A DNA stretch of 63,970 bases, the filler included, from Craspedostauros australis (Eukaryota), in assembly GCA_030167865.1 (NCBI GenBank). It is 11 parts of 11 records of this genome, joined end to end, with 100 filler letters (N's around TTAATTAATTAA, not from the genome) between each part and the next. Parts side by side here need not be neighbours in the genome. Positions count along the whole stretch, not along the records: positions 3,754 to 19,311 come from JALAGF010001429.1; 10 more parts are not named here. The stretch is one strand, 5' to 3'. Position numbers and translations under genes: made by a program. Shown one piece after another: positions 1,505 through 13,500 of this stretch (the stretch's first letter is position 1; the number at the start of each line of letters is the position of its first letter). The notes under the pieces are model-generated. The model did not search any database. It was not told where the DNA came from and worked only from the letters and a program-made list of their open reading frames with translations.

Positions 1505-2126
1505 TGTCAATTGATGATTGAGTTTGGAATTGTGAGCACAAGATCTCACTCATCCTAATCTGATGCATTCATGCACCATTCTACGATCTTGGCTGATTCA
1601 TCATCAGGTCTTCCTACTGATCTGCTCGATGTCTTCGTGTTACATCGTGCATATTTCCTACTTTGTTGCCCAAGGATGTTGTCTGCTTTGCGCAGTAACT
1701 TGTGTTATTTCTCCTCTTGGGTCTTTCTACATCTCTGTCTGATCTTGTCTAATCTTGTCTGGTCTTGGCTGGTCTTGGAATCTTGTAGGATTCATATATC
1801 CCAACCGTCGACGTCAGCAGATTGCTTGCATCATCCCTGACATCACAAGACTATTTCCTAATTGTTGTTACCACGTGCTCACTGATGCACCTGGCGTCAC
1901 TAGACAAGTCAGCATACCATGACTATCACTTATTCTTGATTCCTCGGATCCCAGCGACGATCCTCTGACGTCATTCTCTGATGTCAGTGCCTACGTCATA
2001 TCTGATGACAATAGAACCCGAACACCATTTGCATCATCAAGATTCATTCGACTATACTATCAATTGAGTCGAATCACGTTCCAGTCATGTGTGATGTTAG
2101 CCTAAATTTCGATCTAGATGTTGACA
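1505..2126. mobile_element. Putative LTR family B (~620 bp)
   Basis: Inverted termini TGTCAA...TTGACA; integrase homology of the neighbouring ORF stops exactly at 2126; no TSD seen and no second copy in window. Confidence 0.5.
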
Positions 2127-3048
2127 AGACGAGTAAAGCAACGCCCTCACCATGGTGCCGAAGGTCTTGTTCAACCGTTCCACTTTTCCATTCATCCACC
2201 TGCAATCCGCTCCAGTAGGTTCAACGTTGTACCCACACTCCTGGACCATGGTACCAAAATGACTGGACCTGGCCAGTTCACCGCCCAAGTCGACACGAAC
2301 CGCACGATAGCCTTCGCAGAGCCCAAAAGTAGTCAGGGTCTGCCGTACAGCCATGATGGGCAGGGATTTGTCCTTGGTAAGAAATACCCACACATAGCAT
2401 GTACACGCATCGACCACAAGAAGGTACGCGCAAAACCCATCGACGGAGTGGATGACTCGTTGAGCGCCTTGTGACATCTTGCGCTGGCCGTACGCATCGT
2501 CAGTGGCCCTCATGAACCCAAAATCGACGTGGAACCTAGTGCCAGCGACGTTGGCTGTGGCCGTGTCATTGGGGCCGCGTGTGGCGTGTTGATATCCTGC
2601 CTTGCTGCACGTGTCACAGTGTCGAAGTGGGTGAATGTGCCGTGTAACAGACGCCAGAATACCAGTGGAGCACTTGGAAAGCTTTTGCAGCTGTGCCATG
2701 CCCACATGTCCAAGTCGTAGATGCCAAAGTTCCGACAGGAGCGTAGGCAATGCCTGTCTCAAGGTCATGGCTTGTGGACGAACGCCTCCAAAGAAGTACA
2801 GACCGTTGCGAATGTACAGCGGCACACGAAGATTGTTATCCGGAGACTTGAAGACGATGTGAGCACTGTGCTGGGTGGATTCAATGCCGAAGCTGGTGTA
2901 TGGGTTGTCACGTTGTCTGATGATGGATTGTGGCGACACAAGCGTGTCAGCCAGTCGTGGGCACAGAAGAGTGTGCACCGAAAGATGCGCGCCGTCGCTG
3001 CAGGATAGCCGCATGTACCCTTCTCCCGGGCACTCCATAGCAGGCGAA
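2127..3048 (-). mobile_element. Ty1/Copia pol fragment (protease C-terminal part, GAG-pre-integrase, integrase core)
   Basis: ORF 2097..3038: LWHLRLGH...HCDTC zinc-binding motif, FHVDFG, RVDLGGEL, NGKVERLNKT (DDE integrase). Confidence 0.9.
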
Positions 3049-3753: not shown

Positions 3754-4270
3754 CACTCGAAATCTTGATTCTCAGATTTGACTACCTTCCAGACGGATCT
3801 AAGACCTCATACTTCGTGACCAGATCCTTTGGAGTGTTTTGGAAGTGGGCGCCAGGTCGGATCTGATTGTGATTGACATTTTGCATGCACATATGACCAA
3901 CGCATTACACACAGTGACCGAATGACAGCACATGAACTGACTAAATGTAATCTGAATCTCCTTGCAGTTGGATGTAGCTGTTCCAAGGTAGGTACATGCC
4001 AATGGNNNNNNNNNNNNNNNNNNNNNNNNNNNNNNNNNNNNNNNNNNNNNNNNNNNNNNNNNNNNNNNNNNNNNNNNNNNNNNNNNNNNNNNNNNNNNNN
4101 NNNNNNNNNNNNNNNNNNNNNNNNNNNNNNNNNNNNNNNNNNNTTTCGCCGTTGTCACAGGGACGCGCCGGCCAAAATTCCGGCCATTGTGATTGGCCAA
4201 TACCAAAACGACCTGGTTAGTGGACTTTGGCCTCCAAAACGACCTGGTGAGTGAATTTCCTCATTCAGAT

Positions 4271-5416
4271 TTAGTCGTCGTCCTTCTTTTCCTTTTGCAA
4301 ACTCCGAACGATGCGCTGCCGTTGTGTGGAATGCAATTTGCGCTGGTACTGTATTTCTGGCACGCCTTCGCAGTAGTTGACCCACCGAGCCGCAGTGAAG
4401 AAGTAGTCCGATAACCGGTTGACGTACTGCAGGGCATTGGGATCACACGTCTTGTCGTCAACGAGCTCGATCATGCGGCGTTCTGTGCGACGGCAGACTG
4501 TTCTGGCAACATGTAGATGCGACGCAGCTTTTGCACCGGTGGGAAGGATGAAGGAGGTGAGTTCGGGCATCTCATCAGTCATGGCGTTGATCCACCCTTC
4601 CAGTTGCTCCGTCAGTTCCGGGCTGATACCATCCCCGACTCCGTTGGCGACGAACTCCTTTCCATCGTCGGCGACGAACCGTGGCTTCGCAACATGACTG
4701 CCAACATCGAAGAGCCTGCTCATGACATCCAAGAGCTGATCCTGCAACGGCCCGTAGTCCTCGTCATCATCCAGATGCGCGTACACGACACCGACAACGC
4801 AGCACACTTCATCGACGGATCCCAATGCCTCGAAGTTGGGATCATCCTTTCGTCGGCGTTCTCCGGTTAGCAGCATGGATGTCCCCTTGTCGCCAGACCG
4901 GGTGTACGGCACGTTCTTCGGCGTTGTTCGCTTGAAGGGAGGTTCGTCAATTTTGATCTTCGTCGATTTCTCAGCCTTGGACCGCGGTGGGGCGGTTGCT
5001 TTGCGCGCATGCGTGTCGCAGCATGAAGCCTTTGAGGTCCTTGGCGTAGCGCTGCCAGCGGCACAAGCATCATCATCAGCAATCTCAGGCGGGGCCGTCC
5101 CGTTCGCCTTCAACACGTCCAGCTCATTCAAGTGCGAGTTGCCATCGATGATGTTCTGCACCATCTTCTGCGCTGCTTCATAGTCACCGGACCGCAGTTT
5201 GGCTGGCCTCGATTGATTCGGCACTTCCTCCCATCCGTACGGACAGTGGCGGCAGTTGTTGCCGCAGCACGTGCCGCGCTTCAGATGCAGAAGTTCTGTG
5301 AAGCACGTGAATCCGGTCACCGGGTCGATGTAGGACGACGAGGCGTCCTTCAGCGCACCGCGATGCAGATCCTCGATGTCCGGGACGGAATCTTTCTTCT
5401 CCTCGGTGGTGCTCAT
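4271..5416 (-). CDS. MMAB: PduO-type ATP:cob(I)alamin adenosyltransferase with N-terminal Cys-rich DUF5522-like domain
   Basis: [50 protein letters not shown]-terminal YIDPVTG...[15 protein letters not shown]. Confidence 0.92.
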
Positions 5417-6173
5417 GATTGACCTGATCGTATGTGTGGACGAATGGTGTGTCCAAGCCTTCTCTCCGCGCTGTTCCGCTGCCTCTGCCTCTATCTCTAT
5501 TTCGCTTCTGTTTGTGTCACAAGCGCACTCTGAAGTCCCACTTGACAGTTACTCTCTCATACCCGTGTTCTGTTCTGCCTTGTGCCATTATGACAACTCC
5601 CCTCTTGTGCCAAAGAGATGCAACTTCCACACGGTTCATCCTACCATCGCCGCAGAATCAGGATGACAGCCATCCGTTGGTGGTGGCAGTTCCGTGCGAC
5701 GAGACAAGGAGAAAAGAATGAAACGTTGGTGTTGTGTCACGGTCTTCGTTTGCGTTTGGAACGTGCTTCGATGGTCACACGAGTCGGAAATGGCGCCAAA
5801 ACCAAAACGGGACTGCACATTCATCCGTGTTGTTCCAACTAGTCAATTGAAGAAAACTGGGAGGCCAACCACCCATCTTCCATTTTGCGCGCAAAATCGT
5901 GGAAAACAAGTCGCCAAAAAGTATCTCCGTGGACATCGTCAACTGCGACACCAGGGACGACGACGATGCCGATGATGTTGACGCCGGTACTGATGCTGCA
6001 AGGCACATCCCAGAAGGAAGTCCAGAACCCTATCTACTCGTGTTGCAACTATCGCAACATACGTCACATTCGTCACATTCGTCACGCCACCCGCTTGTCC
6101 CAACGTAGCTCTGAAGCGAAGCTGCGAGCCGAAGGAGAACAACAGAGCAACGACCTCAAATCGAAGAAGAACA

Positions 6174-7289
6174 ATGACAGGCAAGGAGAAGGCAGATGAA
6201 GAAACGGCCGAAGGAGTTGCGCGGCTTCCGAACAACAAGAACGACGACGGAGACGACAGCGATGACTCCGTGTCGTCGGAGGAGGACGATGATCTCATCC
6301 TTGAGGGAGCGTTGATGAGGAATCCTGACATTTCCGATTCGGATGACACGAGCAGCGAAGAGGAAGACGACGACGGCGAAGAGGACGGCAGCGCTGACCA
6401 GAAACCAGCCGGATCCAAGCGCCCAGCAAATGCTGCACAAGTCTCCAATCCAAAAAAGAAAAAAGCCAAACAGGAAAAACCGAGCAAAGGCAAGGGCGGC
6501 GCCGTCACGAAGCAAGACAAGCAGCCACAGACCGGAAAGAGAAAGAAGAAGCAGAAACAGAAGTCATCGGGCCCCGAAATCATTCAGGTCGAATTCACCT
6601 TTTGCGACATGGATGAGAAATACTTTCATGGCCTCAAGACGTTGCTCACCTCGAGCAGTCCGCTGTACAGCGCGACGTCCTCTCCCTTGTCCGATCTCAT
6701 GATCGAAAACATCAGCGTGGGTACAGTCGTTAGCACAGAAGGCGATGTCGATGGCAACGTCTTTGGATTTGCGTCCGTCCTCAATGTCACCACTTACCAA
6801 AAGCACGATTGCATACAGACGCTCAAATCCATCTGCCTCGACCACTGCCCCGACGACCGCAAGAAGGAGCTGCAGACGGTATTGTCCGGCAAAACGAAAC
6901 GACCCGCCGGGTTTCTGCTGCACGGGCGCATGGTCAACATGCCGTTGGAAGTTGTGGAGGTGCTGCATCAGCAGCTGGTTCTGGACATGGATTGGGCGGT
7001 GGACAATGCCGATGGTGGGGAGGATGCTCGCAAGGCATTGAACTTTGGCGCCTTCGTGCGCATCGCACCCACGTACCGCATGGCGCAGACGACGGCCTAC
7101 AAGTTCTTCGATGACGAGATGTTCGCCCAGCATGCGGAATTCACCTTCGACGTGGAGCTGCCCAAAACATTTGGGATGGAGGAAACGCCTCTGTGCAGCG
7201 TCATTGTCATGACCAAGACGGGACATCGGGCTGCCATGAAGTCAATGGCAGACATGATCAACGGCGCGAAGATGGCGGAAGCGAGTTGA
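6174..7289 (+). CDS. BCP1: BCCIP/BCP1 family protein
   Basis: Acidic/Lys-rich N-terminus, then VEFTFCDMDEKYFHGLKTLL, VFGFASVLN, GFLLHGRMVNMP. Confidence 0.85.
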   Translation: MTGKEKADEETAEGVARLPNNKNDDGDDSDDSVSSEEDDDLILEGALMRNPDISDSDDTSSEEEDDDGEEDGSADQKPAGSKRPANAAQVSNPKKKKAKQEKPSKGKGGAVTKQDKQPQTGKRKKKQKQKSSGPEIIQVEFTFCDMDEKYFHGLKTLLTSSSPLYSATSSPLSDLMIENISVGTVVSTEGDVDGNVFGFASVLNVTTYQKHDCIQTLKSICLDHCPDDRKKELQTVLSGKTKRPAGFLLHGRMVNMPLEVVEVLHQQLVLDMDWAVDNADGGEDARKALNFGAFVRIAPTYRMAQTTAYKFFDDEMFAQHAEFTFDVELPKTFGMEETPLCSVIVMTKTGHRAAMKSMADMINGAKMAEAS

Positions 7290-10544: not shown

Positions 10545-13500
10545 TCACTTCTTCTGTTGCTGATTGTGTCCCGCCATGAGGAAGCTCACCAGATCCCGCG
10601 ATCCCAACTTGTCGTTGCTGGACTGCCGCTGCGAAGTCACTGGTGCGGGTATGGAGTGCCGGTACTTCGTCATGTACCCGCGCACAATCTCCCATCCCTT
10701 CAGCTGCCATTCGCTTCGGTTGGCAGTGGCATAGTTCAGATACTCGTCGCTCGAGACGCCAAAGCAACCGCATTCCTTCAGCTTCTTCGCCAGCGGGATG
10801 ATGTAAAAGTCGAAGAAGCCCAGCTCGCCTTCGTACCAGCCAATCGACGGGTCTTTCTCGCTCTTTCCTTCCGTGTACGCTCTGTACATCTCGTGGAACA
10901 ACTTCTCGTTCCACTTGCGATACACGTGCCAGTGCTGCATCGTGTGGGATACATCCGAGGCCTGGATCAAGTGCTCGATCACGATCGTCGCCTTCCGGTT
11001 AACGCTGTCCCGCTGCAGCTCCAGGGTGTCGCTGGGCAGCGCGGATTGGTCGAAGGCCGTCTCCCACCGCTTGCGGCGCAACGCCCCCAGCTCCTTGTCG
11101 GCGATGTCTGTTGCCATGACGGAGTTCACCACCAGCTGGCGGAAGCGATCCATCTCCTCCTGATCCATGTAAATGCAACCGCGCAGATCGACGAATCTCG
11201 GTTCCATGAGCAGCTCCCAGCTCAGGTCAACAGAATTCTGTTCTGCAACGCTCTTCTTCTTGTAGCGATCTGCGAGTTCTTGGTTGCATTCGATGAGGTT
11301 GGCGTTGGGCAATCCGGAGTGATCCACATCGTGAATCAACGCGGAGTAGATGCACGCGAAGTGGATCAAAGGATCCGACGTGATGCCGTACGTGTATTCG
11401 TGCAGCTGCGCTTCCCCCGTCTGCTTCTTGTAACGCATGACTTCGTAGTCGATGGAGTCTGGTGTCACCACGCGCGCCATGAGCTTCGCCACCGACTGCG
11501 TGACGTGGCTGGCATGCTCAAAGGAGTGGAACGGGTTGTCTCGGTACATCTTGCTGATCTCCTCCACGTACTGCTGCAGCTGATCGACGACGGCTTCTCC
11601 CAGGTCGATGTCGTCCGGATCGTGCTTGTACTGCTTGGTTTGCGTCGAGAGGTTGATGATCTCCCGCACCTCGTCCAGGACGGTGTCACCTTCCACCTCG
11701 ATGATCAATTCATCAACATCGTCGGGCATGCCTCCGCCGATCTCTTCTCGCATGGCCGTGATTTTCTTGAGTTGCTGCGCCATGATGTCCACGTTCCATT
11801 CGATCAGCCGCATTGTCTTCTCATCGATGCTGTCATTCGAGAGCATCGAGTTCGCAGACGACGAAGACGATTCGTCGCTGCTATCCAGGCTGTCACCATC
11901 ATAGTCGCTGCCATCGGCTGACGAATCCTCGACGAAGTCAATTTGCAATTCCCCGTCGCTGCTTTGGCCGTTCCCGTTCAGAATGGTTGAGAACTTGTCG
12001 TCTTGGTTGGACATTCGCGAGCTCCTCGGTGGCAGGTCCTGGATCTGCGTCTGATCGAAGATCAACCACCACGTTTGCATCATGCCCTTGCCCTTGACCT
12101 CCACCAAGGTATCGCGTGGTGACACCCAGTCTCGCATTCCCTTCGCGATGAGAATGTTGGCGGTCTCCTCCGACAAGTGAATGCGATCTCGTGCGCCCGT
12201 GCTTTCGATGCGGCACGCGGTGTTCACAGTATCACCAAACAGTTGGAACCTGGACTTGTCACCGCGGAGGACACCTGCCGTGACTGGTCCAGAATGCAAA
12301 CCGAATCTCATCGACAGATCTGCCGTGTCCGGTCCCAGTATGACCTCCAGCTTCCTAACGACCTGGTTCATGCGCCGGCGGCAGGCATTTGCAAACTTCG
12401 CCATCGCCTCGGCGTGGTCCTCGCGACGTTCCGGCAAGCCCGCCACAGCAACATAACAATCTCCGATGGTTTCGACCTTGAAGATCTGCTGACGTTTGGC
12501 GATAGCATCGAACGCGCTGTAAACAGACTCAAGCAACGTGAAGACTTCGGCTGGTTCGCGCTGAGAACTCCATGCAGTGAATCTGTGAACGTGCGAGTGT
12601 TCCAAACGTGGTCGAGGCAGTGGAAGAGTTCCATTGGGCATAGCAATGGGCATCACCATGGGCATGAGGTTGAAGCCGGCATTGCAATTGAAATGCATGC
12701 AGGAATTCGGAAGAAGATGATGCAAGAAAAAGTATCAGGTGTGATTGTGAATGTTAGTGCATTGTGTTGCGTCGCAGCGTATCATGCAGCTGTGAAGACT
12801 AGAAGCGCTTGCGAATGTTGTCACGACAGCACGCACCAATACACAAGTTGCGCTATTCATCTTCGTGGGTTCCACACGGCGACAATTGGAAACAGCACAG
12901 CACGCAATTCTTCCTCCTCATCGATGCAACAGTCGCACGTACCCAGCAATATCCGCAAACATCACTGTGCATTGAATGAACAGTTCTGCGATGGGTTTGT
13001 TGACTTGGAATCTGCTTGTCACGCTCTCCGGATCCGACATCATGTCTTCGTCCATGCTGTGGTCATTCGCAAGGTTCGGATCGTCAATGTCGCGTTCGCT
13101 GCCTCGCAGCGACGCGTTGCGATTGTTGTTTGGATGCGCCTCCTGCCGACGTTGCTTTTTGTCGCGTGCAGCACCGCCGAAGAGCAGACGATCCCTGAAT
13201 TGCGCGGGAAAGAGCGAGCTGATGAAGGCGTGCGATTGTTCAGCAGACTTCACGGCCTGGTCCTGCTGCTCCTGGTACATGCGATCGTAAATCACGAACA
13301 CAACCAGCAGCACGACGAACAGCAAGGCGACGACCGCCGTGAACACTCGCGGTTGCATGCTGGCATGGTCATCTTCAAGCTCGTCTGTCGAAAAGATGGA
13401 GATGGAGATCGGGCAGTACCCGCCATCGCCATCGGTGGATGTCAGAAGGTATTCCGTTTTGCTGATCTTCGATGATGTGATCTCCTCTTCGATGTTCAGT

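Follow-up and report, generated by a model that had tools for sequence, protein, structure and literature searches.

A DUF5522-adenosyltransferase fusion protein in the diatom Craspedostauros australis and the predicted place of DUF5522 in vitamin B12 handling

The fusion gene, its product and its distribution

The window, that is, the whole analysed stretch of 63,970 nucleotides of C. australis DNA (filler included), contains on the minus strand a single-exon open reading frame (ORF) of 381 amino acids (positions 4271..5416), in which a DUF5522 domain is fused to an ATP:corrinoid adenosyltransferase of the PduO/MMAB type. Translation runs from the ATG at 5416 to the stop at 4271 with no interruption, and the plus-strand frame over the same interval is broken by stops. 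An earlier note had described such an uninterrupted ORF with a Cys-rich, DUF5522-like N-terminal module, a linker of about 100 residues and an intact PduO/MMAB domain, and apart from the linker this description was borne out by translation and profile searches. The DUF5522 domain (C1orf53 family, Pfam PF17653) occupies residues 18-63 (5228..5365, minus strand) with an E-value of 1.5e-19 and 70 bits against a cut-off of 25. The Cys-rich motif lies within it as quoted (CCxxxCxHCP with C50, C51, C55, H57 and C58; 5240..5269, minus strand) and is marked by the aligned domains as a putative metal site. The adenosyltransferase domain (Pfam PF01923 Cob_adeno_trans) covers residues 171-346 (4379..4906, minus strand) with an E-value of 1.2e-50 and 172 bits against a cut-off of 24, and it also passes the NCBIfam model TIGR00636 PduO_Nterm (151 bits, cut-off 108). 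The spacer between the two domains (residues 64-170) does exist, but it is partly folded: DUF5522 continues into a helical extension (residues 64-104; 5105..5227, minus strand; AlphaFold2 helices 79-90 and 94-104), and disorder is confined to residues 106-153 (4958..5101, minus strand; pLDDT <50), a segment whose length varies between orthologs.

The best PDB match of the adenosyltransferase part was human MMAB (2IDX, E 2.9e-35), and in the alignment to this enzyme and across the invariant columns, the N-terminal ATP-binding motif and the RxxERR and NRLSD residues are all intact. Among 115 columns conserved to at least 90% in an alignment of 135 proteins, 113 match the consensus, which equals the median ortholog, and V204 and T311 are the only departures; the fusion protein is therefore not decaying. 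The AlphaFold2 model built with the 135-sequence alignment is of high confidence at residues 10-104 and 170-375, with pLDDT >90 up to about residue 90, and its adenosyltransferase part forms a helical bundle of five long helices with pLDDT mostly >95. From these sequence features, the gene is predicted to encode an intact PduO/MMAB-type adenosyltransferase, and its PF01923 domain is the sole match to this family in the assembly.

The third-position GC content of the fusion ORF (0.69) matches that of the neighbouring BCCIP gene (0.70), so that the ORF looks native. This BCCIP gene (6174-7289, plus strand) is divergent from the fusion gene and about 750 bases away. Elsewhere in the window, an ORF with a GAG-pre-integrase domain (2097-3038, minus strand) represents a fragment of a copia-type retroelement, and another ORF (10545-12698, minus strand) fuses a nucleotide cyclase to a phosphodiesterase. 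Contigs of one public run, which is of uncertain type and only presumed to be RNA, matched positions 4202-4920 with zero differences, a span that leaves out the DUF5522 part and the 5' end.

Both Pfam domains were found in 120 of the 120 homologs listed (the best 120 of 1075 matches), the named ones being diatoms. An Atlas cluster of 93 members, mostly diatoms, likewise has both domains in 100% of its members, and the architecture was thus already visible in automated annotation. A FastTree phylogeny (135 sequences, P0225 as root) groups the Craspedostauros protein with Nitzschia and Cylindrotheca in a clade of 49 members with support 0.976. The fusion, expected by the earlier note to be kept in related genomes, is the normal diatom form. 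An assembly fusion artefact and bacterial contamination are ruled out by the two-domain homologs, the placement in the diatom clade and the native GC3. In metagenome scans, one set contained no such fusion and another contained it in 2 of 80 loci, both with introns. An Atlas cluster comprising four taxon records had hinted at a viral version, which was rejected, as none occurred in 80 and 79 viral loci. A tandem double DUF5522 was seen in proteins P0126, P0127, P0157, P0179, P0215 and P0250; in P0126 and P0127 it is accompanied by the adenosyltransferase and a C-terminal hydrophobic tail, both of which are likewise found in P0238, a protein with a single DUF5522 copy.

Translation start, compartment and pathway context

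The N-terminus of the Craspedostauros protein is acidic, counting 7 D/E against 4 K/R over its first 30 positions. Upstream, the frame stays open and acidic for 44 codons without an ATG until a TAA at 5549-5551 (5417..5551, minus strand), so there is no contiguous presequence ahead of this ORF, unlike in many orthologs. A simple charge rule applied to the 135 aligned proteins assigned a mitochondrial-type presequence to 51 of them and none to 67, with 17 unclassified; many of the 67 may reflect the choice of the gene caller, as a comparison of P0004 with its near twin P0017 suggests. The acidic N-terminus that had been contrasted with the presequence of animal MMAB thus holds for this protein but not for the family at large. 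Of the 51 orthologs with a presequence, 47 have a second Met at the point where the net charge flips from +1.5 to -3.4 (31.6 expected; the P value of 5e-6 is overstated because the orthologs are related), and the Craspedostauros ORF starts at the position of this second Met. The family is probably dual-start, because 51 of 135 proteins carry a presequence in frame before a second Met.

A spliced targeting exon upstream of the Craspedostauros ORF is possible. Among 582 single-intron models, 22 gave presequence-like starts, 4 of them with good splice sites. One stretch at 5645..5673 (minus strand), reading MAVILILRRW before a stop and ending at a GT donor, is similar to how orthologs P0017 and P0020 begin, a likeness spotted post hoc, and might be a small 5' exon or the relic of a presequence start.

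METH and MMADHC are present in the assembly, and the B12-binding domain of METH was the sole one found; METH is also the only B12 enzyme found for the cytosol. METE, class II ribonucleotide reductase (RTPR) and EutB were not found in the assembly, nor were MCM, MMAA and methylmalonyl-CoA epimerase among its 6734 contigs, where the search controls did give matches. Subunits of PCC and MCC were not found by family searches that returned two ACC and one PYC (two PYC genes are presumably the rule in model diatoms, against only one here), and neither were BCKDH alpha and beta by those that returned two PDH, OGDH, two transketolases and DXS. Three loci came up for acyl-CoA dehydrogenase: a strong one of the short-chain type, a FadE-like one and one that stayed unclassified. 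An MMSDH-like gene is retained. An apparent block loss of branched-chain and propionate catabolism fits this pattern better than random gaps do, although the fragmentation of the assembly into 6734 contigs, the single PYC and the retained MMSDH-like gene count on the other side.

Since the genes of the MCM pathway were not found while housekeeping paralogs were, the adenosyltransferase looks orphan in this genome, with no AdoCbl enzyme detectable, and the Craspedostauros copy is fairly likely to be cytosolic. The non-mitochondrial B12 step suggested in the earlier note is accordingly likely for this genome, where no in-frame ATG precedes the upstream stop and neither MCM, MMAA nor epimerase was found, but it does not extend to the family, given the presequences in 51 of 135 proteins. 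Two other uses of the enzyme were considered and set aside: feeding of cobinamide remodelling is unsupported, CobU, CobS and CobT not being found in the assembly, and feeding of a cytosolic class II reductase fails because both ribonucleotide reductase loci (G000:C4074 and C6100; L177-L179) are two divergent class Ia large subunits, EutB likewise not being found.

DUF5522 and its genomic company

The motif residues C, C, G, C, H, C and P are invariant in 86 of 86 aligned DUF5522 domains, and CCxxxCxxC occurs in 148 of 149 representatives. Modelled in isolation, the domain consists of a helix, a beta-hairpin and a second helix followed by the Cys loop (AlphaFold2, mean pLDDT 82.7). Comparison of this small model with solved folds yielded no match (best Foldseek E-value 3.1, best VIA-align Z 2.2), and a sequence search of the PDB returned nothing significant; by word index, the isolated domain had 3 matches. 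The CxxxCxxC spacing resembles that of radical-SAM proteins, and matches of this type were weak and non-significant (Pfam E 7e-4 on P0126; PDB 4WCX, E 0.28). Prediction of a complex of DUF5522, the enzyme trimer and Zn scored 0.00 in a run without alignments and favours neither side. With very high probability, the conserved Cys/His residues would make DUF5522 a metal-binding domain. At CCxxxCxxC, an Fe-S cluster appears more likely than Zn because the motif contains the CxxxCxxC spacing.

The only other DUF5522 in the assembly lies in a 714-aa protein (L001:742-2886 on G000:C6005, minus strand), flanked by a BtuF-like domain and a PP-loop ATPase, the latter bearing the ENGEFH signature of the DUF71-B12 subgroup. 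This triple fusion has no apparent signal peptide, and homologs occur in Nitzschia inconspicua and others. A diatom ABC-class protein labelled C1orf53 in a passage of PMC3237598 is consistent with it. The profile search yielded 3648 DUF5522 representatives, of which the best 150 were examined, a set leaning to diatom-like sequences. Most representatives stand alone or are fragments, 78 of 149 being shorter than 170 aa. Among the 71 of at least 170 aa, PF01923 is present in 37 and PF01902 and/or PF01497 in 17, while the other 17 show no further clear domain. All clear Pfam fusion partners of the longer representatives thus come from three B12-associated families.

The bacterial sample comprised the best 80 of 371 loci, with neighbours within three genes annotated through 185 cluster representatives; the genes were called by a simple ORF picker, which is prone to errors where GC is high. 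A cobalamin riboswitch (RF00174) stands at the start of the operon in 9 of the 80 loci (Burkholderiales, Methylophilaceae and Bacteroidota), this being the unbiased figure in place of 8 of 14 among hand-picked loci; two further loci have the gene order of the riboswitch operons, and their sequence ends upstream. The riboswitch-headed loci are located behind TonB receptors, and for the four receptors tested the BtuB models were the best, under their cut-off. DUF5522-DUF71 fusions make up 19 of the 80 loci, 12 of them outside a BtuB operon. In Limnohabitans planktonicus, one operon (L076:695-10378) unites a cobalamin riboswitch with genes for a BtuB-like receptor, BtuC, BtuD, a PduO-type adenosyltransferase, DUF5522-DUF71, two BtuF-like proteins and an ABC ATPase, and so contains every partner of both diatom DUF5522 fusions. 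At another locus (L059), the DUF5522 gene abuts CobS and CobT. No B12-uptake operon was found at 69 of the 80 loci, 29 of which belong to one alphaproteobacterial group (Erythrobacter/Porphyrobacter/Sphingomonadales). Polynucleobacter loci such as L024:5162-6825 have a 277-aa gene without Pfam match ahead of the DUF5522-DUF71 fusion; in these fusions ENGEAH replaces ENGEFH, and there is no riboswitch nearby. Beside stand-alone PduO genes, DUF5522 occurred in 0 of 78 metagenomic and 0 of 79 viral loci, which means that most adenosyltransferases work without an adjacent DUF5522.

In the viral sample (best 80 of 591 loci), a monomeric class II, RTPR-type ribonucleotide reductase lies upstream of DUF5522 in 72 of 80 loci, 62 of them recognised by the ORF picker and 10 (overlaps or contig ends) by tblastn and a motif check. 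The one phage reductase tested had TIGR02505 as its best model (245 against a cut-off of 340) and the AdoCbl enzyme 1L1L as its only PDB match. The phages are related, and the reductases next to DUF5522 form just 2-3 groups at 60-70% identity. Picked in reverse, 24 of 80 viral RTPR-type loci have DUF5522 within 2 kb and 56 do not, some of these loci being cut; as a control, albeit from other virus types, 0 of 80 viral class Ia reductase loci had it within 3 kb. The phage DUF5522 genes (L184-L263, L423-L502) often overlap the 3' end of the reductase gene, next to a helicase gene. An N-terminal His helix is present in 5 of 80 phage copies, most being without it. Giant-virus-like DUF5522 loci adjoin unrelated genes.

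The earlier note had read the fusion as a Rosetta-stone link between DUF5522 and B12, and this link is strengthened by the triple fusion, the riboswitch operons and the class II reductase neighbours in phages. Given its repeated occurrence next to B12 genes in both bacteria and phages, DUF5522 is likely, with good confidence, to act in B12 handling as a helper.

Proposed function, its alternatives and known systems

The overall explanation that we put forward, with about an even chance, is that the fused DUF5522 serves as a small metal-binding helper for B12 handling, most plausibly as an electron donor to the adenosyltransferase. The tethered Cys4/His module, as the simplest candidate for this donor, would be carried to the active site by the flexible linker and would pass an electron to enzyme-bound cob(II)alamin, reducing it to cob(I)alamin ahead of adenosylation. 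In diatoms, two in-frame Mets may give rise to a longer form for the mitochondrion and a shorter one for the cytosol, and Craspedostauros may have kept the short form only, after the loss of the mitochondrial MCM pathway. Rather than load MCM, this short form, which is probably cytosolic, would serve to hold, store or condition B12 for use in the cytosol. The specific role as a redox donor is proposed tentatively. MMAB binds four-coordinate cob(II)alamin and thereby raises its potential by about 250 mV, as stated in passages of PMC8633584, and it may need no dedicated reductase according to a part of PMC2995210, which counts against this role.

In the main alternative, which is rather unlikely though compatible with a real B12 link, DUF5522 would instead be a non-redox Zn module that holds or hands over corrinoids or docks partners as a chaperone or adaptor, with no electron transfer. 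Four Cys and one His in a 50-residue domain would suit a Zn site equally, two of the partners, a binding protein and an ATPase, have no evident redox step, and PMC8633584 (in part) describes MMAB as an escort of its cofactor, sequestering B12 whenever MCM is not available, which suits a genome without MCM. Nevertheless, the adenosyltransferase and class II reductase partners do need reducing input, and it was the radical-SAM type to which the CxxxCxxC spacing gave its matches, weak and not significant as these were. Alternatively, DUF5522 might be a small redox or metal protein of general use that was drawn into B12 operons in some lineages and to the reductases of phages for unrelated reasons, in which case the fusion would say little on C1orf53. 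The bacterial loci without a B12-uptake operon (69 of 80), the predominance of stand-alone or fragmentary representatives and the unrelated neighbours in giant-virus-like loci agree with such a protein, and the phage reductase neighbour could equally mean a thiol reductant with no B12 role; it is made improbable by the fusion partners of the 71 longer representatives, all the clear ones being from B12-associated families, and by the phage copies following the AdoCbl-type reductase and not class Ia.

The remaining alternative concerns localisation only and is again rather unlikely: the protein would be an ordinary mitochondrial diatom MMAB whose presequence is encoded by an upstream exon that escaped notice, and the genes of the MCM pathway would be missing from a fragmented assembly. 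The presequences of 51 aligned proteins out of 135, among them 4 of the 6 closest ones in the tree, point in this direction, as do the available splice models together with gaps between exon matches of about 300-400 bases in this genome; moreover, passages of PMC11439496 describe diatom MCM as usually present and mitochondrial. Against it, the searches that came up empty for some ten pathway genes at once did find their housekeeping paralogs, the assembly gave 29 proteasome-family matches, and the presequences of orthologs are contiguous with the ORF.

By domain search, vertebrate C1orf53 orthologs are DUF5522 proteins. They share with the diatom protein the domain (PF17653) and the CCxxxCxHCP motif, but the vertebrate domain stands alone behind an N-terminal extension, whereas that of diatoms is fused to an enzyme. 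In the searched literature, which did not extend to subscription journals and bioRxiv supplements, we found no mention of DUF5522, no function for C1orf53 and no link of C1orf53 with cobalamin. Excerpts of PMC8664129 flag human C1orf53 in the MitoCoP mitochondrial proteome, the compartment of MMAB, and give its depletion on TOMM40 knockdown as not significant (class 4, p 0.22), and it is listed as transcript-only in a part of PMC10298883. The widest version of our proposal, in which DUF5522/C1orf53 is an Fe-S donor or corrinoid chaperone from phages and bacteria to human mitochondria, with mitochondrial and cytosolic forms in diatoms and an MCM-independent job in the cytosol, is unlikely as a whole. 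If it were true, C1orf53 would become a candidate gene in human B12 metabolism. The physiological electron source of human MMAB is unsettled in the passages of PMC2995210, and the conserved fusion together with three other B12 contexts of DUF5522 points to C1orf53. The finding matters for the path that it opens to DUF5522/C1orf53 and for the apparent orphan status of the adenosyltransferase in Craspedostauros.

Compared with known systems, the diatom protein shares the catalytic domain and its conserved motifs with human MMAB (cblB) and the bacterial PduO-type enzymes (2IDX, 3CI1). It differs from human MMAB in the added N-terminal DUF5522 and linker and in the lack of a contiguous presequence, and no MCM or MMAA was found in the assembly. 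The other partner of DUF5522 in Craspedostauros and bacteria is the DUF71-B12 subgroup of DUF71/COG2102, for which a role in B12 salvage was predicted in 2012 from gene clustering (PMC3541065, in part). Its members are PP-loop ATPases, unlike the adenosyltransferase, and the available passages of that paper make no mention of a Cys-rich partner. The closest parallel to the orphan status is the CblB of hornworts and liverworts, a lineage other than that of diatoms, in which the adenosyltransferase is kept without MCM and CblA, a retention left unexplained in the passages of PMC11439496. An intact adenosyltransferase without a detectable AdoCbl enzyme in Craspedostauros bears on this puzzle, and also on the way in which diatoms that depend on B12 cope with a limiting supply of it.
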